The notes: generated by a model from the letters alone, not told the origin. Counted from the first letter of the stretch, positions 5,162-43,555 are shown. The stretch: DNA of 64,000 nucleotides from Ignavibacteriota bacterium (GCA_963801355.1 CAWDEM010000008.1:32001-96000); one strand, 5' to 3'. Program-made: numbers and translations.

Positions 5162-7840
5162 TCACCGGCGTGAATACACTTTGATGTCCAACCCTCCGGA
5201 TAGCACCTCCGCCGGGATAAGCAAGGAGCCATCCCGGCGTGGGGATATTTTCTTGCCATTGATCAGCGCGTAGTTCACCTCACCTGCTCTGTCGATCTCG
5301 AGCCTGATCCTGGACGAACGGAAACGCAGATCAGCTCTGCATCCGCCCTCGCCAGGAAACAATGCAGGGCGAACAACCAGGTCGCTCCCTTCAAAGGAGA
5401 GGCCGAGCCAGTGTCTCACCGCAAACAACGCCACCTCGGCCGATGCCCAGGGGACGATGCCCGCACCAGGGACCTGTGATCGTATCAGAGGAATCTCCTC
5501 GAACCAGGCTCCGGCACTTCCGCCCTCGACGTGCAGAAGCCAATCGAGTGAACGGCGGCTCCTGTCGTAGAGGCCGGCATCGTGTTGTGCACGGGCGATG
5601 GAAGCCGTTGCAAAACTCCATGGTCCGGGTTGATCCTGCTGGGAGCTGGAATGATACCGTTCATACCCGCCGAACTCCCAACGTGCATTCCAGATTTCTT
5701 CCAGCCGGTCAAGGGTCTTACGAGCCAATGCGGATTTAGGGTCTACAACCTGAAGCACGATCGGAAGAACAGAGCTCGCATCGGGATTCAGCCGGTGGAA
5801 CGCTTCAGTGGCGGCAGGATCGTCTCTCCTGAGATCGGACAGCTGACCTGGGATGAAGTCCGCGACCGAGCCGTCGATATTCCTCCGCTTTATGAGACTT
5901 CCCCGGTCCACCAGTGATCGTGACGGATGATCAAGCATCGCGTGTTGAAACACGTCTGCCTCTGATCTCCAGAAGGCTGCTTTTTCCGGTACTCCCAGGT
6001 GACGCGACAGTTCGGCAGCGTCTCTCAGACCGCGTACCATGAACGTCTGGTACGCCAACTCATACCCGTCCTCGAAGGTGCGTTCCCAGTACTCACGCCG
6101 GTTGTGCACCATCCCCGTCGAATCGCGGAATCGGGCCTGAAGAGGCCGTTCGATCATGGCAATGATTCTTGCGCGGTGTTCTGAGATGAGCAGGCTATCG
6201 CCGGTCCAATCGCGGTAGGCCTTCAGAGCGTGTATCAGTTCGCCCATTTGATCGAATTCTTCGCGATCCGGGTTGTCGAACGCGCCTGAAGAAATCAACG
6301 TACCCTGGATTGAGACAAGATCGGTGAGAATGAGGGCCAGTAGTGCCCGGGCCGATTCGAAGTGGCCGGCATGGATCAATCCGAGAGCAACGTTTGAGCC
6401 ATCGCGTACCCATTGATCGCCGTATTCGAAATTGCCTGCGTCCATCTTCCCATCCGACCCGACCATTCCGGGGAGCGCGAATCGTGCATGGTCGAACAGA
6501 TCCTTGACGAGGGAGTCTCGTGTGGCAATGGAGCCCGTCTGGTCCCAGTACCTGCGTGTTTTCTCGATCTCGCGCCCAATCTGGGAAACCTTCATCTCCG
6601 CAAGCGCGTCAAAGAGCTTCTGCACTCCCGTTTTCACTTCAGGCTCCTCAGGCGCCGGGCCAGGCAAAAAACACCGTACCCGAACTCCCGCCCAACCCAG
6701 GAGCTCGGCGAACTCGATCCGTATGTTGTAGGTTTTGCCTGACTCAAGCACAATATCTCCTGTTCGCCGTACGTTTCGGGAATTCTCCCAGCAGTTGATA
6801 AGAAGCGTGTCGCCGACATACAGGCGGGCTCTCTCGTCAGCCACCAGGGAGAATCGATGCCGGCCGCTCCTCAAAGGGAGGAGTGACCCCGTCCATCGGA
6901 CCGAAAAGGAATCAGCGCGGACTCCTTCTGCTGGCGAGGCGGTACCCCAGGATGGACAGAAGTTGGTGTCTACGCGAACGACTACCGGGGTACCATGGAG
7001 ATCGGGATTGTTAAAGTATTCTCCCTTCAAACCTATGAGTCCACTCGTCTGCCTCTCCGGACGCAGAAGACCAGGTGCCAGCGGCCGGTCGTCACCGCAC
7101 TCCTGCTCGTAGGAGTACCCCGCGGCAGGGATGCGCGTAGCAAGAAGTGTCGTCTCGGCGACCTGGCTGCCAGGAGCAATGCAGATCGGAAGCGATTCTA
7201 TATACCCATGTCTTTCGTCGACAATCGCAGAGGCCTGTCCAACGAATCCAATTCCAAAAGCGACGTTCTCAGCGATCCCGACAAGCATGGACTCATGCGC
7301 AAAAAAGCGGCCTGGCGGGAGGGAGAGTCGGAGTCGAACTGTATCCGGCCCCGCAAGGTCTTTCCCTGTCAGGGTAATGTTCCGGACAAATGTATTCGAG
7401 CCTTCCAACGCTGTAAACGATTCCGTGACCTTGATGCCTCCAGCCCACCAGTGGGCCTCCACCGAAGGGATACCATCGTGATATCTCCAATGCACGTTGG
7501 TGGTACGTCCGAGTGCGGTGAAGGGAACTCCCCGTAGGACGACTTCAAGCGCGCTTGCTGAACAGGCCTTTCCCGGAGTGTAGTTAAAGGCCCTTCCTTT
7601 CCTGAGCGTCTGGCAGGGTTTGTTCGCGTCAAAGAGCATGTATGTGACTGCGGGTTGCAGACCGGATTTGTCAGACTGGAGTATGAGCTTTGCATTGCCG
7701 CTTCGGAGCATGAAATACTCTCGTCCAGTTACGAACGAATTCAGGAAATCATCATTGACCTGACCTGACCCTCGAGCAGCCATGGTCAGCAAGAGGATGA
7801 CACAGAGCGATAGGCCACGTAAAGCAGAGAAAGGATGCAT
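5162..7840 (-). CDS. Secreted (alpha/alpha)6 glycoside hydrolase (GH15/debranching-like) with an inserted PA14 domain
   Basis: Signal peptide; PA14 motif GLKGEYFNN...DSFSVRWTG...ADERARLYV; YGDQWVRDGS and six-hairpin-like C-terminal half. Confidence 0.75.
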   Translation of the reverse strand: MHPFSALRGLSLCVILLLTMAARGSGQVNDDFLNSFVTGREYFMLRSGNAKLILQSDKSGLQPAVTYMLFDANKPCQTLRKGRAFNYTPGKACSASALEVVLRGVPFTALGRTTNVHWRYHDGIPSVEAHWWAGGIKVTESFTALEGSNTFVRNITLTGKDLAGPDTVRLRLSLPPGRFFAHESMLVGIAENVAFGIGFVGQASAIVDERHGYIESLPICIAPGSQVAETTLLATRIPAAGYSYEQECGDDRPLAPGLLRPERQTSGLIGLKGEYFNNPDLHGTPVVVRVDTNFCPSWGTASPAEGVRADSFSVRWTGSLLPLRSGRHRFSLVADERARLYVGDTLLINCWENSRNVRRTGDIVLESGKTYNIRIEFAELLGWAGVRVRCFLPGPAPEEPEVKTGVQKLFDALAEMKVSQIGREIEKTRRYWDQTGSIATRDSLVKDLFDHARFALPGMVGSDGKMDAGNFEYGDQWVRDGSNVALGLIHAGHFESARALLALILTDLVSIQGTLISSGAFDNPDREEFDQMGELIHALKAYRDWTGDSLLISEHRARIIAMIERPLQARFRDSTGMVHNRREYWERTFEDGYELAYQTFMVRGLRDAAELSRHLGVPEKAAFWRSEADVFQHAMLDHPSRSLVDRGSLIKRRNIDGSVADFIPGQLSDLRRDDPAATEAFHRLNPDASSVLPIVLQVVDPKSALARKTLDRLEEIWNARWEFGGYERYHSSSQQDQPGPWSFATASIARAQHDAGLYDRSRRSLDWLLHVEGGSAGAWFEEIPLIRSQVPGAGIVPWASAEVALFAVRHWLGLSFEGSDLVVRPALFPGEGGCRADLRFRSSRIRLEIDRAGEVNYALINGKKISPRRDGSLLIPAEVLSGGLDIKVYSRR

Positions 7841-7953
7841 TGTCTCTCACCTTCCTGGAGATTGTATCTCGTCACATCACCGTTTTGGCGGGATCGGTAG
7901 AAGAAGTTCTATAAATGTACACAATGTCTTTGTCAGATTCTACGGCTGGGAGG

Positions 7954-7975
7954 GATGGAATGAGTCCCCCTTGCG
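7954..7975 (+). repeat. Orphan transposon-end-like repeat (type A)
   Basis: GATGGAATGAGTCCCCCTTGCG compared with GATGGAAGAAGTCCCCCTTACG at 3762 and 17710. Confidence 0.65.
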
Positions 7976-8050
7976 GGACAATTCCTACACGATCTTTCAG
8001 TATTTGTCCTACAGATATTTGACAATTCTTAGCGTATATTGCAGTAAAGG

Positions 8051-8137
8051 TTACAGAGGTCGGATGTGGGACTCACGCGCCGGATCTGGAAGCGCACCTG
8101 ATCTTTGCCTCCATCTGCACTCCCTCCTCAAGCGCGG
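8051..8137 (+). ncRNA. Candidate structured 5' leader element, copy A, upstream of the hybrid sensor kinase
   Basis: 73 of 88 aligned positions are identical to the reverse complement of 39933-40020. It begins 10 nt after TATATT (8035-8040). Confidence 0.55.
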
Positions 8138-8197
8138 CATCAGTTCTCCACACAGCCAAGCAAAGCCTCGCATGTGCCAACTCCGAGGAGGGGGGGC

Positions 8198-11100
8198 ATG
8201 TCTGAAAGTATGTCTGCCATTAAGAGCTTCCTCGTGCTATCGCTTATCCTTGCCTTTATCCGCGCCCCCGTCCATCCGCAACAAGACAACCTGGTATTCG
8301 AACCGCTCTCTGTTGATCAGGGCATGCCGACCGCCGTGAGGTACATCCTTCAAGATAGAACCGGCTATTTATGGTTTGGTACGTATAGTGGCCTTCACCG
8401 GTTTGACGGGTACAGCTTCGTGTCTTACAGACACGATGCTGGTGATACTTCGAGTATAGTTGACAACAACGCCTCCACCCTGTATGAAGACAAAGCGGGA
8501 GTGCTGTGGATAGGGAGCCCGCTTGGGCTTGACAAATTCGATCGCACAATCGGTACGTTCTCGCATTATGTACCTGATCCAGCCGGCAGAGGAGAAGACC
8601 CAGGCAATAAGGTTTTGGCGATTCGTGAAGATAGAAATGGTGCTCTCTGGGTTGGGACTGAGGGAGGGCTATATCAATTCGATAGAGCAACAGGGAAATT
8701 CACGGCGCTGAGAATTGGTACCACTGATTCCGTTGGCATGTCTCATAACCCTGTGAACGCAATCCACGAGGATGAAGAAGGATCGCTATGGTTTGCGACT
8801 CGTGAAGGGCTTGACAAGTATGACATTGAAGCGGGGGAGCTTATTCGTTGTTGGAATGACTCAGGCAATCGGCAAGGGCGGTGGGTAGATACTTCAATGT
8901 ACTGTGTCAACGCACTCTGTGCCGATGAGACCGGGGTACTGTGGCTGGGGACGAATGGAGGATTGGTGGAGTTCAACCCCAGGACGGGGACCACTTCCCG
9001 TTATCGCTACAACCCCCCGAAAGGATACAATCAGGTCCACCAGATCTGCCAGGATGCCACAACCGGTTCCTTCTGGCTGGCGACCGGCAGATTGCTTCTC
9101 TCTTATGATAGACAGTCAGAAGCATTCACCAAATATGAGTATCGAACAAACGCCGTTTGTAACGAGCGATCCGGAACACTCTGGGCTGGGACAGATACCT
9201 ACATACAAAAGCTCAACCGGGCAAAACAGCCCTTCAAGAAATATCCAATGGATATCACGGCCCAGGTGATCAAGAGCGGAAAGGAAGGAACACTCTGGAT
9301 CAAAATACCTAACGGATATAGGAAGTTTGACATACGAAGAGAAGAATTCGTTCCGTTTTCGTTTGGCAAGAATATCGTGAAGTTTGTGTACAATTCGGGA
9401 GGTGAGGTGTTGCTCTACTGGGAAAACGATTTGCTGTCCACGGTAGATAGTTCTGGCGCAAGACATGACTGGGAGCCGTGCTCGCGATCGTTCGCGAATT
9501 CAGTTTCGGCCAGCTGGAAAGGGAGCAAAGGATACTGGTTCGGTACTCGCTTCGGCGGTCTCTTTCTTGTCGATTTCAAGAAGCCACGCTTCAGAGAAAT
9601 CAGGAATGTGAGGCTACATATAGATCGCATCTATGAAGATACCGGCGGTGCAGTTTGGGTTGCCACCGCAATGGGCAAGTTGTTCTGCTGTGACCAGGCA
9701 GAGGATACAATCATCGAATTCATCCCCGAGTCCGGAAAACCTTCAGCGGTAAGTGGGAGAAGGTTTAATGACGTTCTTGAGGATAGCAAGGGGGGGCTAT
9801 GGTTCGCTGCAAATGATGGCTTGTTAAAGCTCGACCGTTCAGCAAAGAAGTTCGTTCGCTATTTCGAAAAAGACGGTTTGCCCAGCAATGACGTACGAGG
9901 TGTTCTCGAAGATGATCATGGTTGTTTGTGGATTGCCACTAACAAGGGCATCTCGAAGTTCGATCCTGAGACAAATCACATCAAGAATTATGATGCTTCC
10001 TACGGTCTGGAACCGACAGCGGATGTGTTCCTTGGCAAAGGGTGCAAAACAAGAAACGGTGAAATGTATTTTGGAGGAGCGGGGGGGTTCACGCGTTTTC
10101 ATCCCGACAGTGTGAAGGACAATCCGTTTGTGCCGCCGGTTGTGATAACATCCTTCAGAAAATTCGACAAAGCGTATCCACTCCCGCATGATGTCCGCCT
10201 CTCGTACGATGAGAACTTCATTGCATTTGAGTTTGCAGCGCTGAGCTACATAAGTCCGGAAAGGAACCAGTATACCTACAAGATGGAGGGACTAGACAAG
10301 GATTGGGTGCATTCAGGGACACGGCGTTATGCGTCCTATCCGGGCCTGGAGCCCGGTGAATACACGTTCAGAGTAAGGGGGTCGAACAACGACGGGGTAT
10401 GGAATGAAGCCGGAACGTCGGTTTCGATCGTCATTTCTCCCCCCTGGTGGAAAACCACGTGGGCATATGCTCTCTACGCGCTGATGGTTCTTGGCACCCT
10501 CTATGTCACCTGGAAAATGCAGGTGAAGAGAATAGGAGAGAGGCAGGAATATGAGATGAGCAGGTTCGAAGCAGAGAAGCTGCGCGAGATGGATGGGATG
10601 AAATCGCGCTTCTTTGCGAACATTTCCCATGAGTTCAGAACGCCCCTCACGTTGATCCTGGGACCTGTCAAACAGATTATTGAGAGGACAGAGGAGGAAG
10701 ACACCAGAAGCGGTTTGCAGGCTGTTCACCGGAATGCGGACAGGCTTCTTGGGCTTGTGAACCAGCTGCTTGATCTCTCCAAGCTGGAGTCGGGCGCCAT
10801 GAAGCTGCGGACAGTCCGTCTGAATATCGTTCCACTGTTGAAAGCCCTGGTGCTGTCGTTCGCTTCGTATGCAGAACGGAAGCGAATCACGCTGACGTTC
10901 AACGTAAACGAAATGGAAATATCCACCTACGTAGACAGGGACAAGATCGAGAAGATCACCACCAACATACTTTCCAACGCGTTCAAATTCACTCCTGAAA
11001 GTGGAAGGATTGACGTGTCGGTGACGAGAACTGAAGACCGCGTGACCGTAGCTGTGGCCGATACGGGGATCGGTATTCCGGCCGACAAGATCTCCAGGAT

Positions 11101-12181
11101 CTTCGATCGATTCTATCAGGTGGATGGAAGCCATACAAGAGAACAGGAAGGTACCGGGATCGGCCTGTCATTGACAAAGGAACTGGTGGAGCTACACAAA
11201 GGGACAATTGAAGTCGAGAGCGCAGCAGGAAAGGGAACAACAGTTGTGATTCACCTTCCTCTGGGGAAAGAACACTTGAAGCCGGAAGAGATATGCGACG
11301 TTGAGGAGGAGGGGAAGAGCGAACTGATTGCCAGGCCGACTTCCTCTGTTCCGGAGGAGCTGCTCAACCATGGAGTGACGAAGGCCGCGAAGCCTGAGAT
11401 TGGCGTGTTCACGGAAACAGAAAAGCCACTGCTGCTCATCGTAGAAGACAATGCCGATGTCAGAGATTACATACAGAATGATCTCAAACGGGAGTATGGA
11501 ATTCTGGAGGCTGTGGATGGAGAGGACGGCTGGAGGAAATCCCTTGAGCATATGCCTGATGTCGTTGTCAGCGATGTCATGATGCCGAAAATGGATGGGT
11601 TCAGCCTCTGTGATCAAATCAAAAAGGACGAACGAACAAGCCACATACCTGTCATCCTGCTAACGGCGAAGGCGTCGCAGCAGGACAAGATCGAAGGGCT
11701 TGAGACAGGCGCAGATGATTACATCATGAAACCATTTGAACCGGCAGAACTCAATGCAAGAATACATAATCTCATCGAACAGAGGAAGAGAATTCATGAG
11801 CATTTCAGAAGGCACGGATTGTATGACATAGAGGATAAAAGCATCACGCCTGTTGATCAGAAATTCCTGCAGAACGCTCTCGCAGTCATCACCAGGCATA
11901 TGTCGGATCCCACATTCGGGGTGGAGTCACTGGCAGCGGAGTTGGCTGTGAGCAGATCGGTGCTTCTCAAGAAGATCGAGGCGTTGGTCGGCGAGCCGCC
12001 GAATGACCTGATCAAGAGGACTCGATTGACCACAGCTGCGAAGCTCATCGAACGCAGATTTGGCAATATGTCCGAAATCGCACTGGAAGTGGGCTTCAAT
12101 AACCCGTCCTATTTCGCCAAATCCTTCAAGAAGCAATTCGGCATCAACCCCTCGCGCTACCTCCGCAATCCCATCTCGTAG
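8198..12181 (+). CDS. Hybrid two-component system sensor-regulator (Reg_prop beta-propellers, Y_Y_Y, HisKA, HATPase, receiver, AraC HTH)
   Basis: QDRTGYLWFGT repeats; YASYPGLEPGEYTFRVRGSNNDG; NISHEFRTPLTLI; GTGIGLSL; SDVMMPKMDG; EVGFNNPSYFAKSFKKQFG. ATG 8198 follows GAGGAGG. Confidence 0.93.
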   Translation: MSESMSAIKSFLVLSLILAFIRAPVHPQQDNLVFEPLSVDQGMPTAVRYILQDRTGYLWFGTYSGLHRFDGYSFVSYRHDAGDTSSIVDNNASTLYEDKAGVLWIGSPLGLDKFDRTIGTFSHYVPDPAGRGEDPGNKVLAIREDRNGALWVGTEGGLYQFDRATGKFTALRIGTTDSVGMSHNPVNAIHEDEEGSLWFATREGLDKYDIEAGELIRCWNDSGNRQGRWVDTSMYCVNALCADETGVLWLGTNGGLVEFNPRTGTTSRYRYNPPKGYNQVHQICQDATTGSFWLATGRLLLSYDRQSEAFTKYEYRTNAVCNERSGTLWAGTDTYIQKLNRAKQPFKKYPMDITAQVIKSGKEGTLWIKIPNGYRKFDIRREEFVPFSFGKNIVKFVYNSGGEVLLYWENDLLSTVDSSGARHDWEPCSRSFANSVSASWKGSKGYWFGTRFGGLFLVDFKKPRFREIRNVRLHIDRIYEDTGGAVWVATAMGKLFCCDQAEDTIIEFIPESGKPSAVSGRRFNDVLEDSKGGLWFAANDGLLKLDRSAKKFVRYFEKDGLPSNDVRGVLEDDHGCLWIATNKGISKFDPETNHIKNYDASYGLEPTADVFLGKGCKTRNGEMYFGGAGGFTRFHPDSVKDNPFVPPVVITSFRKFDKAYPLPHDVRLSYDENFIAFEFAALSYISPERNQYTYKMEGLDKDWVHSGTRRYASYPGLEPGEYTFRVRGSNNDGVWNEAGTSVSIVISPPWWKTTWAYALYALMVLGTLYVTWKMQVKRIGERQEYEMSRFEAEKLREMDGMKSRFFANISHEFRTPLTLILGPVKQIIERTEEEDTRSGLQAVHRNADRLLGLVNQLLDLSKLESGAMKLRTVRLNIVPLLKALVLSFASYAERKRITLTFNVNEMEISTYVDRDKIEKITTNILSNAFKFTPESGRIDVSVTRTEDRVTVAVADTGIGIPADKISRIFDRFYQVDGSHTREQEGTGIGLSLTKELVELHKGTIEVESAAGKGTTVVIHLPLGKEHLKPEEICDVEEEGKSELIARPTSSVPEELLNHGVTKAAKPEIGVFTETEKPLLLIVEDNADVRDYIQNDLKREYGILEAVDGEDGWRKSLEHMPDVVVSDVMMPKMDGFSLCDQIKKDERTSHIPVILLTAKASQQDKIEGLETGADDYIMKPFEPAELNARIHNLIEQRKRIHEHFRRHGLYDIEDKSITPVDQKFLQNALAVITRHMSDPTFGVESLAAELAVSRSVLLKKIEALVGEPPNDLIKRTRLTTAAKLIERRFGNMSEIALEVGFNNPSYFAKSFKKQFGINPSRYLRNPIS

Positions 12182-36675: not shown

Positions 36676-39600
36676 TCAATACTTAGAATTAGGTAAATCG
36701 GTCGGCCTATGGCTCCTCAGTGTCGCCTGAATTGCAAGCAGCGTTCCACAACCGGGCGTGGAATCTATCCTGAGAGTCGCTCCCACATCTGCGATCCGCT
36801 TGTTCATGCTCCTCAAGCCGTTTCCTGTCCCGAGTCGATCATTGAGAACAAACCCTTTCCCATTATCGGAGACAAGAATTTCCAGGTTGTCTTCCATACA
36901 CTTCACAGCGATCGAGACTTCCGTGGCCGCAGAGTGTTTGACGATATTGTGAAGAGCTTCCTTGACTGCAAGGAAGAGATTCCGGCGTAGCTCAGCGCGG
37001 AGTGGGAGGTCGGGAACAACGTCAGGGGCTGCAAACCTGCAGGATATGTTGGCCAGGCCCAGGTATTTGACCGCATCCCTTCGCACGCGAGCGACGAAGC
37101 TGTCGAGTGTGTCGTTGCTCGGATTCAGTGCCCAGACAATCTCGCTGACGCTGTCGATCACCTCCGCTGCGCGTTCGGAGATCTGCTGAATATACATTTC
37201 CGCTTCCTCGGGCTTCTTTCTCGCCAACTCACCCAGTATGGAAATCTCTGATAAACTGGACCCAACCTCATCGTGCATGTCTTGAGAAATGCGGGCACGT
37301 TCGTTCTCCAACGCTCGCGCCAACTCCAACCGTTCGATTCTTCTCATCAGCTTTCTCTTCTCAACGTACCGGACTGTTTCAGCGGCAATGCCAAGCAGAA
37401 GCATCATCGCAGGTATCCGGAACCACCATGTTACCCAGAACGGCGGCGAGATAATGACAGCAATGGAAGCCCCTTCTTCGTTCCAGACACCATCGTTGTT
37501 GGATCCCTTAACGCGAAAAACATATTCTCCGCCATCGAGGTTTGTGTACGTTGCCGATCGGCGCGTACCGCAGTACACCCACTCTCTGTCAAATCCCTCA
37601 AGCATGTAAGCATACTCGTTCTTTTCGGGGCGTAAAAAGTCCAATGCAGCAAACTCAAAGGAGAAGACGTTTTCCTTGTACGATACTTCGATCGCACCGG
37701 ACCGGCCGATGGCTTGACGGATGTCCACCGGATTGTCGAATTTCCTGAAGCCTGTGATGACAATCGGTGGAACGTGAGTGTTCTCCTTGACGCTATCAGG
37801 GTGGAACATGGTGAAACCACTGGTGCCGCCGAAGCAAAGTTCGCCACTTCTGAGTTTGGCATGGCAACCATAAGAGAACCGGATTCCCAGCAAACCGTCT
37901 CCGGCATCATAATTGTTGAAATGTTTTGTTCGAGGATCAAATCGGGAAAGACCCATGCCGGTGGCGATCCAAAACCGTCCATGGTCGTCTTCTTCCATAC
38001 ACCAAACAAGATCATTCGCCAGGCCGTCCCTGGTCGTGAAGTGAACGAATGTTCTGGTTTTCGGCTCAAAGCTCCAGAGACCGCCCTGAGTTGCCAGCCA
38101 GACTGTGCCGGAGTGATCTTGGTGGGTCTGCATGATATTATTGCTTCGACTCGTGTATTGCGTGTCGGGGAAGAATTGTTGGAATTCCCCACGCTTCATG
38201 TCAAATCTCGTGAACCCATGATCAGTTGCGATCCATAGGAGTTCTTCGTCCCGACGGGAAGTATTTACCTCGAAATCCCAGACTACATTACCGATCATGC
38301 CATTAGGATTATCGGGATCCCGAAAGAAATGTGTAAGCTGATCCGTTCGGGGATTGAATCTCTTCAATCCCGCACTATATGTGCCAAACCACAACATTCC
38401 TGATCCATCCTCATAGATTGTGCGGATGCGTGTGTCACTTATGGTCTTCGGATAGTGCTGAAATGTCTGACTTCCAGGGGGAAGCTTGTCAAGACTTCCT
38501 CCCAACGTGCCGATCCACAGCGAACCCGATCCACTCTCACAGAGACCAGTGACGTAATCACTGCTAATGCTATTAAGGTCTCTCGGACTATGCAGGAAAT
38601 GTTCGAACACTGCGGTCGCTGGATCGAAGCGGTTAAGTCCACCGCCTAAAGTGGCGACCCATAGATTCCCCTTGCGATCCTCCTTGATCGATCCAATATA
38701 ATTGTTACTCAGGCTCCGCCGATCGTCAGGGTCATGAGAGAAGTTTCGAAAGATGTTCATTTCCGCAACATACCTGTCAAGGCCAACTGCAGTTCCGACC
38801 CACACCGTCCCGGATTGATCTTCACAAAGAGAAGTGACGTTATCACTGCTCAGGGTTACGGGGTCCTTAGGGTTGTTCACATGATGCTCGAACTTCCTTT
38901 CCTGCGAGCGCCGTCTATCGAGGCCTCCGTTAAATGTCGCGATCCACAGATCGCCTGATCGATCAACAAGCAGCTGATTCACGGCGTTGTTGCTCAGGCT
39001 TGTGGGATCCCATGGCCGGTGGACGAATGTCTCGAATGTCTTCGTCATCGGATCGAACTTCTTGACGCCGGCAACGAACGTGCCAACCCAGATATTCCCG
39101 GAATGATCTTCACAAAGAGTCCTCACTCCGTCGGGATCAAGAATGCTTGTATCTGTGCGAGCACTTTGATAGCAATCCCATTCGTTCGTGACAGGATCAA
39201 TCCTGTGCAACCAACCACCTCGTGTGCCAATCCAGAGAACCCCTTTGTGATCCCGAATAATGGCGCGCACCCTGTTGTCGCGCAACGTCTTTTTCCTTAC
39301 CGTCAGCCGACTCGTATCAAGCACGAGCCGCGTGAAAGTATTGTCATGTGCGTTGAACTTGTTCAGGCCAGCACTCCTCGTTCCAACCCACAACTCACCC
39401 TTGCCATCCTCACCTATGGCAGTGATGGAATCGGAACTGATGCTGTGCTCGTCATGAGCACTGTGGACATATCGCGTGAACTTCTCCGTCTTCGAATCGA
39501 ATCTGTTCAACCCCGCATATGTCCCGACCCACAAATCCCCATAGTGATCCTCAAAGAGGGCTCTCACGTCGTTGTTAATCAAACTCGCTTCATCTTCGGG

Positions 39601-39858
39601 GTCGTTACGATACACCTGGAAGCGGTATCCGTCATAGCGGCCAAGACCATCGACTGTGGCAACCCAGAGATACCCGTCGGTGTCCAGGAGAATCCGATTC
39701 ACAGCACTGTTCGGAAGTCCCTGCTCGATGCCAATATGCTGAAATCGAATTGTCTCTTTGGGGGCTGAGAATACAACGCAATGCAGACTGAACAGAAGGA
39801 CACAAACATATTGGAGCGAGTTGAGCTTCAACCAGCCTATTGACGGAGGAAACAACAT
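36676..39858 (-). CDS. Sensor histidine kinase with Reg_prop beta-propellers, Y_Y_Y and HisKA_3/HATPase domains
   Basis: ED..G.LWVGT repeats; ATYTNLDGGEYVFRVKGSNNDG; ERARISQDMHDEVG; KEALHNIVKHS; GNGLRSM. The start is taken at ATG 39858 because the ORF's 5' extension overlaps the promoter and IS remnant. Confidence 0.9.
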   Translation of the reverse strand: MLFPPSIGWLKLNSLQYVCVLLFSLHCVVFSAPKETIRFQHIGIEQGLPNSAVNRILLDTDGYLWVATVDGLGRYDGYRFQVYRNDPEDEASLINNDVRALFEDHYGDLWVGTYAGLNRFDSKTEKFTRYVHSAHDEHSISSDSITAIGEDGKGELWVGTRSAGLNKFNAHDNTFTRLVLDTSRLTVRKKTLRDNRVRAIIRDHKGVLWIGTRGGWLHRIDPVTNEWDCYQSARTDTSILDPDGVRTLCEDHSGNIWVGTFVAGVKKFDPMTKTFETFVHRPWDPTSLSNNAVNQLLVDRSGDLWIATFNGGLDRRRSQERKFEHHVNNPKDPVTLSSDNVTSLCEDQSGTVWVGTAVGLDRYVAEMNIFRNFSHDPDDRRSLSNNYIGSIKEDRKGNLWVATLGGGLNRFDPATAVFEHFLHSPRDLNSISSDYVTGLCESGSGSLWIGTLGGSLDKLPPGSQTFQHYPKTISDTRIRTIYEDGSGMLWFGTYSAGLKRFNPRTDQLTHFFRDPDNPNGMIGNVVWDFEVNTSRRDEELLWIATDHGFTRFDMKRGEFQQFFPDTQYTSRSNNIMQTHQDHSGTVWLATQGGLWSFEPKTRTFVHFTTRDGLANDLVWCMEEDDHGRFWIATGMGLSRFDPRTKHFNNYDAGDGLLGIRFSYGCHAKLRSGELCFGGTSGFTMFHPDSVKENTHVPPIVITGFRKFDNPVDIRQAIGRSGAIEVSYKENVFSFEFAALDFLRPEKNEYAYMLEGFDREWVYCGTRRSATYTNLDGGEYVFRVKGSNNDGVWNEEGASIAVIISPPFWVTWWFRIPAMMLLLGIAAETVRYVEKRKLMRRIERLELARALENERARISQDMHDEVGSSLSEISILGELARKKPEEAEMYIQQISERAAEVIDSVSEIVWALNPSNDTLDSFVARVRRDAVKYLGLANISCRFAAPDVVPDLPLRAELRRNLFLAVKEALHNIVKHSAATEVSIAVKCMEDNLEILVSDNGKGFVLNDRLGTGNGLRSMNKRIADVGATLRIDSTPGCGTLLAIQATLRSHRPTDLPNSKY

Positions 39859-39932
39859 GATGTGCCTTCTTCCGGAAACCGGGATGTCGCAGACAAGGAG
39901 AGCAAGGGATTCAATCCAGCCGACAACTGTAC

Positions 39933-40020
39933 CCGCGTTCGAAGAGGGAGTGCAGATGGAGTCAAAGTGCAGGTGCGCTTCCAGGCCTGACGCGGGAGAC
40001 CCCGCATTCGACCTCTGTAA
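39933..40020 (-). ncRNA. Candidate structured 5' leader element, copy B
   Basis: About 83% identical to 8051-8137; GUCGAA/UUUGAC and UGCGGG/CCUGCA pairings. Confidence 0.55.
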
Positions 40021-40030
40021 GCTTGGCGGA

Positions 40031-40059
40031 AATATACGGCAGGCACTGCTAAATGTCCA
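40031..40059 (-). promoter_or_regulatory. Sigma70-type promoter for the kinase-regulator operon
   Basis: TGGACA-17 bp-TATATT on the minus strand. Confidence 0.65.
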
Positions 40060-40071
40060 TAGACGGTATGT

Positions 40072-40118
40072 TAAAAAGGCAAGCCAGTTAAAAAGGTAAG
40101 CCATAAAAAAGGTAAGCC
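40072..40118. repeat. Three direct repeats AAAAAGG(C/T)AAGCC
   Basis: Copies at 40073, 40090 and 40106, with a 16-17 bp period. Confidence 0.85.
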
Positions 40119-40189
40119 TCGATTTCAGTGTCTCTATTGGTGTGTTGACCAACAATGTACCACAACCGTAGAGAGGCCTACCATGTCTG

Positions 40190-40390
40190 TGACCTGGCCC
40201 CCCGCTCGTGATCCAAGAATTAGTTCGTGGAATTATATCTTGGATCAGAAGGAGGGGTATATGGGAAAGCCATGGCTTACGGCAGCAGATTATCGGCAAG
40301 CTGCGAGAGGCAGAGGTGCTTCAGAGCAAAGGGATGCCGATCGAGGAGGTTTTGCAGCAGTTGGGGACCAGCGATGCGACGTACTCGTAG
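40190..40390 (+). pseudogene. IS3-family (IS407-like) left end and orfA remnant
   Basis: TGACCTGGCCCCCC end; QQIIGKLREAEVLQSKGMPIEEVLQQLGTSDATY. Confidence 0.85.
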
Positions 40391-40930: not shown

Positions 40931-43555
40931 ATGAAATTCAGCTCCATTGCGACGGCCATCCTTCTTTTGCTCACCATCACCGTCCCTACCCGGTCTCAGG
41001 ACGTTCACCTTAACAGCATCATCAATGTCACCTTCAACGCCAACGCGCCAACTCTCATCGGCATTGACCGGGGGAGACTCTTGTGGTCAGATTCGGACCC
41101 CAATACCGGCAAACTCAGTCTGACATACTACTCCGGAGCAGGAATTACCCCCCTGGATTCAAATCTTGTTGCCCTGACGGCGGCCATTGGCACTGACTAC
41201 ATCGTCTGGAATTCAGCCGGCGAGCAGGTGAAGGCCTTTGATATGCATGCGTGGCGCGTACTCTCCCTGGGACCATCATACAATCCTGATTTCGCCCAGC
41301 CGGTGGCAGTCTCCGGAGATCTTGCCGGATATGCCCGTCGCGGAGCCGGACCGTCAACGCAAATCGTTCTTCACCGCTTCGCGTCAGGCACGGACACCCT
41401 GCTTTCAGCGGGAACGTGGAATACCGCACCCAGCATCAACCATGGACAGGTAGTCTGGGTGGCAGCAGACTCCGAATTGCTGACGACCCCATCCAATGTC
41501 TTCGTGTTCGATGGGCGGGCGACAACCGACATCTCCAAAACAACTAACGCCTGCAACCGCGCCCCGATTCTTCGGGACGGGCAGACCGTCTGGCTCCAGA
41601 CAGCTGGGAGCACACAGCGCGTGAAGTTCTATACTGGGGACTCAGTGCTGACCATCGCTGAATCCCCGGGAGGATCTTCCGTTGTCACAGGCTACGATGT
41701 GAGCGACGGGATAGCTGTTGCTTTGCTGCGCGACACCATCTCGAACAGCAGCTCCATCAAGATCTACAACTCGGAGACTCAACTGACGACAACGATTGGG
41801 GATTCTCTTGGAGCGTACAGTGTCCACATCAGCAATGATCTCGTAGTGTGGCAGTCAGGAACCGGGGCCGCCAAGCACCTCAAATCTTACTCCGTTCAGC
41901 ACGCGGAAATCCGGGATCTGGGAGCCGGAGAGAATCCAGTTGTCGATCATGATTTGATTGCATGGACGCTGGGAGATGCCGTGGAACTGAGTCGACCCAT
42001 CACGTACCGGCAGCTTACCACGGACGCACTCAATGGTTGGGAGCAGACGAAATTCAAGACGACCGACAGCTCTCATGTGGTGTGGGGCAACTACGCGAAC
42101 TCATCGAATATGCGGCTGTTCGCATGGAATGGGACGACGACGACTCAGCTCACCGATTCTATGTCAGTTCAAGATTTCGTGATGGTCAATGACGGCTATG
42201 TTCTCTGGCGGAAGAATTTCGATTCCCTGTTCTATTACGACGGCGTTCATTCTCCGGTGAAATTCCTGGATACGGTTCAGGCAGAAAATCCGTACGTCGC
42301 AGGGGGTTCGGCGGCCTTTTTCGGCCCTCGGACGACTGTCCCCGATAACATCAAGCACGCATGGCTCTATGACCTGGCCGCGAAAAGACTTACGCTGCTC
42401 TCCTCGGACAGCGGGATCACGGGCAACGTGTTGTGTTCTGCAAACACGGCGTGTTGGTTGAGCGGCAAGACCCTGCGGCTCATGTACTTTGATGGATCCA
42501 CGACAATTGCATTGAGCGATTCGGCGGCTGGATACGACTACAGCTACAGGAACGGAAAGGTCGTATGGACGGAGCAACGAAGCGGCATGTCACAGGTGAT
42601 GATGTACGACACGAAAAACCACATCAGAACACAGCTCACGAATGGCGGAACATCGAAGTACAATCCTATCACGGACGGCAATGCCGTTGTGTGGTATGAC
42701 AACGCCTCACAGCTCGCCACCACGGTGACCGCTGACCTGTGGTACTATGACGTCGGGCGCGGCCGCCGTTCCTTCGTCGCACGGACGACATATTCCGTTT
42801 TGTATTGGAACTGGATGAGCAACGGCAAAATCGCCTGGCTGCATGCTGGGAATATCGTGGCCTTCGATGGCGATGTGATTACCCAGCTGACGTCCAACGA
42901 TGGGTTCAGAGCCTATTCTGGCCTCTATTTGGATCATGAGATGCTCGTCTGGAAGAGAGGCCTTGCCCCCACTTCCCCTCAGACGGGAGACGTCTTCAGG
43001 CAAACGCTGCTCCCCCATGCTGCATTCGAGGCGACAACGATCTCGGGGAGCGCACCTCTGGCCGTCTCTTTCCTCAACAAATCGTGGGAGGGAAGCCGGT
43101 CGTTCCTCTGGGATTTCGGGGACGGGAGCACCGGCAATGAAATCAACCCCGCACACACGTATGTCACACCGGGGAACTATTCGGTGACGTTGACCGTCAG
43201 CGGACCCGGCGGATCAGCGACAGAAAGAAAATTCAGTCTTGTGCGCGTGCGATCGGTCACCAGTGCTTCTCTGCTTGAAGGGGTGATCCCCGACCGATGT
43301 GTCCTGCATCAAAACTATCCAAACCCCTTCAATCCTTCTACGACGATTCAGTTCGATCTTCCGGCACGTTCCTACGTTTCGCTAAACGTCTACGACGTGC
43401 TGGGCCGCTTGGTTGGCACGCTTGTCCGTAACCAACAAGCGGCAGGTTCGCACCGGGTGACATGGAATGCCGCGGGCTATGCATCAGGCGTATATGTGTA
43501 CTGCCTTCAGGCCGACGGCGTCATTCAAACACGTAAACTCCTGATCGTGAAATAG
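40931..43555 (+). CDS. Secreted beta-propeller-repeat protein with PKD domain and T9SS C-terminal domain
   Basis: Repeated G.VVW blades; GSAPLAVSF...WDFGDG...PAHTY..PGNYSVTLTV PKD motif; QNYPNPFNP. Confidence 0.87.
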   Translation: MKFSSIATAILLLLTITVPTRSQDVHLNSIINVTFNANAPTLIGIDRGRLLWSDSDPNTGKLSLTYYSGAGITPLDSNLVALTAAIGTDYIVWNSAGEQVKAFDMHAWRVLSLGPSYNPDFAQPVAVSGDLAGYARRGAGPSTQIVLHRFASGTDTLLSAGTWNTAPSINHGQVVWVAADSELLTTPSNVFVFDGRATTDISKTTNACNRAPILRDGQTVWLQTAGSTQRVKFYTGDSVLTIAESPGGSSVVTGYDVSDGIAVALLRDTISNSSSIKIYNSETQLTTTIGDSLGAYSVHISNDLVVWQSGTGAAKHLKSYSVQHAEIRDLGAGENPVVDHDLIAWTLGDAVELSRPITYRQLTTDALNGWEQTKFKTTDSSHVVWGNYANSSNMRLFAWNGTTTTQLTDSMSVQDFVMVNDGYVLWRKNFDSLFYYDGVHSPVKFLDTVQAENPYVAGGSAAFFGPRTTVPDNIKHAWLYDLAAKRLTLLSSDSGITGNVLCSANTACWLSGKTLRLMYFDGSTTIALSDSAAGYDYSYRNGKVVWTEQRSGMSQVMMYDTKNHIRTQLTNGGTSKYNPITDGNAVVWYDNASQLATTVTADLWYYDVGRGRRSFVARTTYSVLYWNWMSNGKIAWLHAGNIVAFDGDVITQLTSNDGFRAYSGLYLDHEMLVWKRGLAPTSPQTGDVFRQTLLPHAAFEATTISGSAPLAVSFLNKSWEGSRSFLWDFGDGSTGNEINPAHTYVTPGNYSVTLTVSGPGGSATERKFSLVRVRSVTSASLLEGVIPDRCVLHQNYPNPFNPSTTIQFDLPARSYVSLNVYDVLGRLVGTLVRNQQAAGSHRVTWNAAGYASGVYVYCLQADGVIQTRKLLIVK

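Follow-up and report, generated by a model that had tools for sequence, protein, structure and literature searches.

Why should two quite different sensor kinase genes on opposite strands be preceded by almost the same short sequence? The question is raised by a 64,000-nt stretch of an Ignavibacteriota bacterium genome (GCA_963801355.1, CAWDEM010000008.1:32001–96000; hereafter the window, which is C8:32001–96000 of the genome we refer to as G000), in which an initial annotation had proposed that a structured element of some 88 nt stands ahead of two beta-propeller kinases. As far as sequence comparison can establish, the element is real, its conservation marks it as functional, and it is a feature of the RNA at mRNA 5′ ends; it is a new structured leader motif limited, within the genomes searched, to one family of Ignavibacteria-like Bacteroidota. 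The two copies (A and B) and the genes behind them are given here with scores from covariance models built from ten own-genome copies (R1) and from 65 homologues (R2).

8041–8149 (+): leader element copy A, model positions 1–109 (R1 104.9 bits, E = 2.5e-35; R2 94.2 bits)
39921–40030 (−): leader element copy B, model positions 1–109 (R1 116.6 bits, E = 9.6e-40)
8198–12181 (+): hybrid propeller kinase/AraC gene behind copy A (Pfam Reg_prop, Y_Y_Y, HisKA, HATPase_c, Response_reg, HTH_18)
8185–8200 (+): Shine-Dalgarno region GAGGAGGGGGGG and ATG (8198) of the copy A gene
36676–39858 (−): propeller sensor kinase gene behind copy B, followed by a LuxR-type regulator (Pfam Reg_prop, Y_Y_Y, HisKA_3, HATPase_c; from the list of open reading frames (ORFs))

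The likeness of the two copies, originally aligned by hand, was reproduced: 73 of the 87/88 positions agree between 8051–8137 (+) and 39933–40020 (−), with a single gap, and this is far above chance (blastn E = 3e-22 within the 4.8-Mb genome). Both copies start 10 nt past CGTATATT, which ends at 8040 for copy A and 40031 for copy B, and both end within the 60–75 nt ahead of the kinase start codon that had been described (60 nt for copy A, start 8198; 74 nt for copy B, start 39858), although covariance-model matches make the conserved block slightly longer than first given (~8041–8149 on the plus strand and 39921–40030 on the minus strand). The surroundings are as diverged as had been claimed: the 100 nt on each side align at 52/109 columns upstream and 53/111 downstream, which is the background level of unrelated sequences, and the proteins behind copies A and B are 31% identical. 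Conservation of the leader is therefore much above that of the genes behind it (83% DNA compared with 31% protein identity), and because high identity stops at the leader, a recent segmental duplication is excluded.

Seventeen copies were found in the genome by DNA search, blastn, R1 and R2, of which ten are full, one is truncated and six are divergent ("type II") copies added by R2 at 24–30 bits. The truncated copy (C4:15595, minus strand) has only the first hairpin of the element (P1, described below) and the GGAAGYGCAC box, and then runs directly into a Shine-Dalgarno sequence and ATG. R1 had matches in 15/61 relatives' genomes, all within the window's own GTDB family (14/36 besides G000), and none in 24 genomes of eight sister families; across the whole family, 22/68 genomes and 10/29 genera had a match at E <= 1e-4. 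R2 matched 13/151 genomes across the order, with 10/31 within the family besides G000, and outside the family it matched 2/120 genomes, both borderline (E ~3e-4) and neither inspected. When a single genome of each species was scanned with an exact pattern, 27 stretches were obtained, almost all of them from metagenome-assembled genomes (MAGs) titled Ignavibacteriae, Ignavibacteriota or Bacteroidota bacterium; the metagenome pattern scan gave at least 120 stretches, and R1 had 76 matches on 80 loci among those listed; the pattern had no match in 2.9 million viral contigs. After identical cores had been dropped, our working set consisted of 132 unique sequences (65 genome and 67 metagenome).

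The genes behind the own-genome copies encode three Reg_prop/Y_Y_Y sensor kinases (two hybrids with AraC and one with HisKA_3), a Ser/Thr kinase with TPR repeats, four sortilin/BNR proteins (two with a type IX secretion system (T9SS) sorting tail in the stretch scanned), S41 (T9SS tail), M6, M1 and one M2-like peptidases, a DUF3160 protein, another T9SS-tail protein, a PadR regulator and two DUF4440 proteins. For the other genomes we scanned 49/55 downstream ORFs, leaving out L106 (a near-duplicate of L105) and five with short downstream sequence or no ORF, and most of those scanned end at ~450 aa, where the locus ends. They include 8 Reg_prop, 5 Sortilin/BNR, 2 Pkinase and 2 DUF3160 proteins, the remainder being varied, and the same gene kinds (propeller kinases, Ser/Thr kinases, sortilin/BNR proteins, and S41 and M6 peptidases) stand behind the leader in several genera. 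The initial annotation had taken the element to control the beta-propeller sensor family; tabulation of the downstream genes, which it had also suggested, gave mixed gene kinds and not kinases alone, and this specificity was not borne out, with propeller kinases behind only 3/17 own copies and 8/49 ORFs in other genomes.

That the element belongs to no known Rfam class was upheld by an Rfam search, in which the whole window had no match at gathering thresholds. None of the 4227 families of Rfam 15 matches the element even at E <= 10, the matches at this level around both copies being at chance level and at other positions or strands (HCV_SL2531, 17.5 vs 56 bits; Gl_U2, 11.5 vs 100). No description of the element was found in literature on riboswitches, RNA motifs, and intergenic or noncoding RNA in Ignavibacteria/Ignavibacteriota (the supplementary tables of RNA-motif surveys were outside the scope of this search), and the matching passages of PMC5317091 and bioRxiv 10.64898/2026.09.15.751765 do not concern it. 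The supplements of large RNA-motif surveys might list the element under another name, which is less plausible for curated motifs because Rfam has no match. With no Rfam match, constant position and orientation, and covariation in P1, the earlier view of an unrecognised structured cis-regulatory leader stands.

Predicted promoters lie directly upstream of both copies.

8012–8040 (+): copy A promoter, with −10 TATATT 8035–8040 and a weak −35 CAGATA 8012–8017 at 17-nt spacing (read directly)
40031–40059 (−): copy B promoter, TGGACA 40059–40054, 17 nt, TATATT 40036–40031 (consensus scan, 10/12 matches)

In a survey of the 120 copies for which 60 nt or more of upstream sequence was present, we counted a −35/−10 pair if at least 9/12 consensus positions matched, and found a sigma-70-like pair at a fixed distance upstream in 88/120. 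The spacer is 17 nt in 83/88, the −35 is TTGACA or TTGACT in 71/88, and the end of the −10 lies 16–17 nt from the first G of P1 in 74/88. The genome's own rrn promoter has the same form (TTGACA-17-TATATT), which indicates a housekeeping promoter type at the leader. An ORF of at least 150 aa begins on the same strand within 400 nt downstream in 96/111 copies, compared with 20/98 in the divergent direction, so that neither the orientation to genes nor the promoter distance is random, as they would be for a sequence scattered without regard to genes. The element would thus be the 5′ end of a transcript predicted to start ~9–10 nt ahead of P1.

The fold of this predicted RNA is made up of the following parts.

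8057–8087 (+): hairpin P1 of copy A, base AGGUC 8057–8061 with GAUCU 8083–8087, middle GUGGG with CACGC (one mismatch), loop ACU
39983–40014 (−): hairpin P1 of copy B, base AGGUC 40014–40010 with GGCCU 39987–39983, formed in the minimum free energy (MFE) structure
Upper part of P1 in copy B (−): internal loop GAA/UCA, UGCGGG with CCCGCG, loop GUCU
8088–8124 (+): predicted hairpin P2 of copy A, GGAAGCGCA 8088–8096 with UGCACUCCC 8116–8124, variable loop (RNAalifold)
39946–39982 (−): predicted hairpin P2 of copy B, GGAAGCGCA 39982–39974 with UGCACUCCC 39954–39946
8125–8138 (+): C/U-rich tail and segment c of copy A, in which c (CGCGGC 8133–8138) can pair with CACGCG 8074–8079
39932–39945 (−): C/U-rich tail UCUUCGAA and segment c of copy B (c is CGCGGG 39937–39932)

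RNAalifold placed two adjacent hairpins in the ten own copies, with no compensatory pair. In the consensus P1, a base of AGGUC/GACCU is separated by the small, conserved GAA/YCA internal loop from a middle stem of UGCGG/CCGCG, which carries a tip of variable length, and copy A has the weakest P1 of the own-genome copies; P2 adjoins it, pairing GGAAGCGCA with UGCACUCCC around two conserved A-C mismatches and a loop of 2–22 nt. On the 65 genome copies the combined fold has 89.8% of cells paired, compared with 33–54% in slid controls, and both sides have changed in 9 pairs compared with 4.3 in column shuffles (reached by 0/500), with all five of the five basal P1 pairs covarying. A lack of significant covariation had been named as a result that would speak against an RNA, and P1 does covary in excess of the shuffles. 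The tip of P1 (the segment at model positions 29–35) ranges from 4 to 49 nt across copies while the stem is kept, and because G-U pairs exceed A-C combinations by 71 to 21, the P1 stems carry the signature of RNA transcribed from this strand, and not that of a palindrome in the DNA or of antisense transcription. In one clade the GAA/YCA internal loop has given way to Watson-Crick pairs through changes in the 5′ strand only, which suggests that the 3′ strand of P1 is the more constrained. Readings of this internal loop as a K-turn, loop E or T-loop were tried by eye, and none fitted the consensus motifs. P2 takes a short form with a loop of 4 nt or less in 10/132 copies; two such leaders in G000, C8:24671 (+) and C8:2671450 (−), lie within a near-identical ~330-nt duplication and lack 17 nt between two CTGCAC repeats.

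The single long hairpin originally drawn for the element (CAGA/UCUG, GUCGAA/UUUGAC, UGCGGG/CCUGCA, CGC/GCG) is not supported. It is 76.9% paired on the 65 homologues, a value reached by 336/500 shuffles, its covariation is below the shuffle mean, and its 3′ arm is missing in 10/132 copies. The fold supported instead consists of the two adjacent hairpins and an alternative helix.

This helix involves three segments: a is the 5′ strand of P1, b is the 3′ strand of P1 (CCCGCG), and c is the CGCGGG after the C/U-rich tail. The longer UCGAACGCGGG around c repeats the P1 5′ strand UCGAAUGCGGG in copy B and many others, and the MFE structure of copy A uses the b–c helix. As b is complementary to both a and c, two exclusive folds are possible, a–b or b–c. 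In the metagenome set, b–c has 24 double-change cells compared with 8.0 in shuffles (0/500) and 5/6 pairs with double changes; 17 of the 24 represent one swap of C-G to U-A in one clade, which P1 accommodates as G-U or A-U. Type II copies are an independent line of evidence: they have CCGUAUG as b and CGUACGG as c, which form an unbroken run of seven pairs in which two have changed in a compensatory way (C-G to U-A and G-C to A-U), and their segment a stays AUGCGG and pairs with b via wobble and a shifted register. In a mixed set of 31 sources hand-picked for diversity (35 rows, three of which are reverse-strand noise), there are 19 double-change cells for b–c compared with 11.2, and 22 for a–b compared with 9.8 (0/500 each). 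Permutation of duplex partners among 116 sequences gave mean energies of −8.56 for self and −8.05 kcal/mol for others in a–b, and −9.19 and −8.40 kcal/mol in b–c, with 0/5000 permutations reaching either; for the a–c control, p = 0.10. When the two folds were forced, they differed by +0.49 kcal/mol in the mean and 0.0 in the median, and Fold I had the lower energy in 49% of the 115 sequences. When mutual information was computed for every pair of columns, clade structure dominated the result, and its one use was to flag pair 38–94. No control used here corrects for phylogeny, and the double changes arose in few clades; we therefore regard the b–c helix as supported but not proven.

What would such a leader do? 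We think it probable, though well short of certain, that it is a family-specific cis-regulatory leader RNA which forms the first ~110 nt of the mRNA behind a sigma-70-type promoter and works as a two-state switch. The RNA would take either a–b or b–c, which are mutually exclusive, and the binding of an effector (a small molecule or a protein) to the conserved P1/P2 core would set which fold forms. The fold would in turn set the exposure of the C/U-rich, anti-Shine-Dalgarno-like tail and of the 5′ end, through which the downstream gene would be controlled at the level of translation initiation, Rho loading or mRNA decay. What the computations show is conservation, a position close to the promoter, a constant orientation, P1, and the co-variation of b with a and c; transcription from the predicted start, the switching, the effector and the output are what we infer.

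For the output, the tail CUCCCUCCUC resembles the anti-Shine-Dalgarno end of the genome's 16S rRNA (CACCUCCUU), and whole-leader MFE structures have the C/U tract paired to the Shine-Dalgarno region in 4/7 own-genome leaders folded, including A and B. Set against an output through the tail and the Shine-Dalgarno sequence is one carrier gene in which a Shine-Dalgarno sequence is not evident. From the P2 loop to c the consensus reads as C-rich and G-poor, and a Rho loading site here is equally conceivable. A c–d hairpin (CGCGG...CCGCG) occurs in a subset of copies only and is absent from A and B, and we rejected both it and a terminator as a general platform for this reason; an intrinsic-terminator attenuator was rejected because no G+C-rich hairpin with a U-run was found between the window leaders and their genes. 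When an antisense partner for the C/U tract was looked for, no site with two or fewer mismatches stood out among the 43 matches listed, ten of which are the elements themselves.

A number of results weigh against a two-state switch and are collected here. No expression platform was identified by our terminator, downstream-stability or C/U-tract co-evolution tests: there are no terminator-like sites in 7850–8300 or 39780–40230; the 44 nt from segment c onward have no excess stability over shuffles (mean z = −0.05, 125 copies); and the C/U tract pairs no better with its own downstream 250 nt than with those of others (−16.95 vs −17.09 kcal/mol, p = 0.78), giving no sign of co-evolution. On the 65 genome copies, b–c is 83.3% paired, which was reached by 114/500 shuffles and is no excess. 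Most b–c double changes come from two clades and represent few independent events, in shuffles which ignore phylogeny, and CGCAAG or CGCAGG variants weaken the helix. The difference in energy between the folds is widely spread across sequences (sd 5.5 kcal/mol), and single-sequence folding energies are no better than those of shuffles (z of +1.7 to −1.7 for five copies). P2 shows no covariation, as both strands are nearly invariant (which is no test either way), and is a prediction, and the metagenome pattern fixes parts of both P1 and P2 so that counts from that set are biased. The promoter of copy A, with its weak −35, was not called by the consensus scan of 7850–8300, and the transcription start is placed by promoter consensus only.

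A narrower form of the switch is conceivable, though we hold it doubtful: the P1 internal loop and P2 with its two A-C mismatches would be the aptamer of a new riboswitch class responding to a global signal, second messenger or central metabolite, and the a–b/b–c exchange would co-ordinate a regulon. If so, T9SS-secreted hydrolases, peptidases and substrate-detecting sensor kinases would be co-regulated in sediment and soil Ignavibacteria-like Bacteroidota.

The best surviving rival to the two-state leader, which we nonetheless consider unlikely, is a static one in which fixed P1 and P2 hairpins are bound by a regulon-wide RNA-binding protein or shield the 5′ end from decay, with no switch, and with b–c a by-product of repeated G- and C-rich segments. 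The high conservation of unpaired and mismatched positions (GGAAGCGCAC and UGCACUCCC) is what a protein footprint might leave, the P1 3′ strand is more constant than the 5′ strand, and both the genome-set result for b–c and the want of an expression platform speak for it. The compensatory b–c changes in type II copies and in one metagenome clade are, however, hard to explain without selection, and the a–c control lacks the effect. Neither candidate partner fits: CsrA (PF02599) is not associated with the leader, being found in 11/22 leader genomes and 23/46 without it, and ANTAR (PF03861) is found in 3/68 family genomes and in 0/22 with an R1 leader match (G018, which is among the three, is matched weakly by R2). 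We had rejected a CsrA-regulated leader for the first reason and because the GGA of the CsrA motif is lost in GAGAG variants, and an ANTAR-regulated leader, with its two short hexaloop hairpins, because of the rarity of the protein and the 4–49 nt range of the P1 tip. P1 also lies ~9–10 nt from the predicted 5′ end, which is farther than is usually described for protection by a 5′ hairpin.

We find it improbable that the element is an independent or 5′-UTR-derived small RNA (sRNA) of ~110–130 nt acting in trans via the C/U tract on purine-rich ribosome-binding sites, with read-through incidental. There are many copies per genome, the c–d hairpin closes the element in some of them, and anti-Shine-Dalgarno-like sequences such as CUCCCUCCUC are the seed type of some Gram-positive sRNAs; against this, no terminator-like site stands behind either window copy, the c–d hairpin is not general, the truncated copy continues straight into a Shine-Dalgarno sequence and ATG, and the great majority of copies are followed within 400 nt by a gene on their own strand (no search for further promoters was made there).

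A little less probable still is an operator or extended promoter/initially transcribed region read as double-stranded DNA, such as a sigma-54-like TGG-N10-TGC site. The block does lie directly downstream of the −10 at fixed spacing and has long invariant runs without covariation, and in short variants TGGAAGCGCACCTGCA, read directly, has the GG-N10-GC spacing of sigma-54 promoters. The putative −24 GG is, however, GA in 54/132 copies (50 GAGAG, 3 GAGAA and 1 GAGGG), copies with CCTGAT or CCTGAA have GA in place of the expected GC, and a sigma-70-like promoter is already present upstream, and we rejected a sigma-54 promoter on the first two grounds. Pairing kept across P1 arms of such variable distance indicates a hairpin rather than a dimer-binding palindrome, and the excess of G-U over A-C indicates selection on one RNA strand.

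Scarcely credible, finally, is a functionless repeat, either a MITE-like mobile element or a promoter cassette copied with paralogous genes, for although there are 17 copies in the genome, promoter and leader sub-families travel with paralogous kinases, and two own copies share the ~330-nt duplication, the two termini of the element (ACAUAGGUC ... CGCGGGU) do not form an inverted repeat (no search for target-site duplications was made), its orientation to genes is non-random, leader identity so far above protein identity between unrelated flanks indicates purifying selection on the leader, viral contigs have no match, and it is kept in ten genera ahead of the same gene kinds.

Several features around the leader were also noted, the first lying just upstream of copy A.

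7983–8013 (+): TCCTACA direct half-sites, 7983–7989 and 8007–8013, upstream of copy A and outside the RNA

The TCCTACA block, often with the palindrome TGTAGGAAnnTTCCTACA, is found upstream of 6–7 own-genome copies and in the same-genus genome G003, and is likely to be a transcription-factor site common to leader copies in this genus. Where the −35 would stand, these repeats are carried by copy A and by five or six further copies in the genome, and here they are probably an activator site. The palindrome, (G)TGTAGGAAnnTTCCTACA(C), with extra TCCTACA half-sites (e.g. at C8:382898, C8:1186241, C4:15757 and C4:315840) is operator-like. Nine perfect GTAGGA-N(2-6)-TCCTAC sites occur genome-wide: three adjoin type I leaders (the truncated copy among them), one adjoins a type II leader, and others are at promoters without a leader. 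Just upstream of the copy B −35 are three tandem copies of GGCTTRCCTTTTT(T)A (window ~40070–40125, minus strand), which may be an UP-like element or binding site, and four tandem AGATCCAAGAGAATC repeats are directly upstream of one type II leader promoter (G000:C4:1573880–1573960, plus strand).

A second conserved module was seen 20–120 nt downstream of the element in ~30/126 copies (judged by eye among 43 regex matches), consisting of a hairpin, GGCUCG...CGAGCC or GAUGGCU...AGCCAUC, followed by GCCGCCGAGUGUU and further on by ACCCGACGAC. Carriers include L003, L004, L008, L035, L051, L053, L105, L138, L164, L176 and type II copies, and copies A and B are without it; the leaders appear to be modular.

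At copy A, a TTG ORF (8105–12181, plus strand) carries the kinase frame back through the leader, and is an artefact of the open frame; the likely kinase start is the ATG at 8198 behind GAGGAGGGGGGG rather than the TTG at 8105. A leader peptide or N-terminal extension of this kind was rejected since the lengths of the P1 tip and P2 loop vary out of frame and there are stops in other copies. Both window copies are in divergent intergenic regions, with a PA14-domain protein gene (5162–7840, minus strand) on the opposite side of copy A and a gene for a PKD-domain protein with a T9SS sorting tail (40931–43555, plus strand) on the opposite side of copy B.

The lineage is known almost only from metagenome-assembled genomes, and we know of nothing reported on post-initiation gene regulation within it. 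A leader common to up to 17 genes per genome would mark a co-ordinated regulon for extracellular polymer use, with members including secreted peptidases, BNR/sortilin surface proteins, hybrid two-component sensors and a Ser/Thr kinase. Should a ligand bind the leader, it would represent a new riboswitch class, and should a protein bind it, a new global post-transcriptional regulator in the FCB group. The covariance model could be used as a marker for transcription starts and regulon membership even without the mechanism, and the leader, which is clearly conserved and has a defined fold and a helix exchange open to testing, is short enough for in-line probing and reporter assays.

Compared with known systems, the element shares with rrn and lambda antitermination (boxB and boxA) a hairpin followed by a conserved single-stranded pyrimidine-rich box near a strong promoter; the genome's own rrn boxA UGUUCUUUGA, present in the leader and spacer, is unlike the element's CUGCACUCCCUCCUC, and NusB/E boxA antitermination was rejected on this account. 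Like the trp-type 1:2/2:3/3:4 attenuators, it has three successive segments of which the middle one pairs with either neighbour, but it has no leader peptide (the length of the P1 tip varies out of frame) and no segment 4 or U-tract that is general among the copies. With protein-mediated attenuation (PyrR, TRAP, BglG/SacY RAT and ANTAR) it has in common a 5′-proximal hairpin with an internal loop, the stabilisation of which would decide between competing helices; it differs in that no terminator competes with the element's hairpin and ANTAR is absent from the 22 genomes with an R1 leader match. Where riboswitches and other switching leaders have a multi-helix junction or pseudoknot, the element has two plain hairpins, and it has neither an Rfam match nor a recognisable terminator or clear Shine-Dalgarno-sequestering helix. 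What is generally looked for in a riboswitch, a conserved structured 5′ UTR domain with covariation, is found here in the five covarying basal P1 pairs and the promoter in 88/120 copies. The element further shares with these leaders the 5′ leader position, many invariant internal-loop nucleotides, variable stem tips and one strand with two partners, as well as several copies per genome ahead of mixed genes (signalling proteins, secreted proteases and surface proteins), and regulons of mixed kind are also those of the second-messenger class c-di-GMP-I/GEMM.

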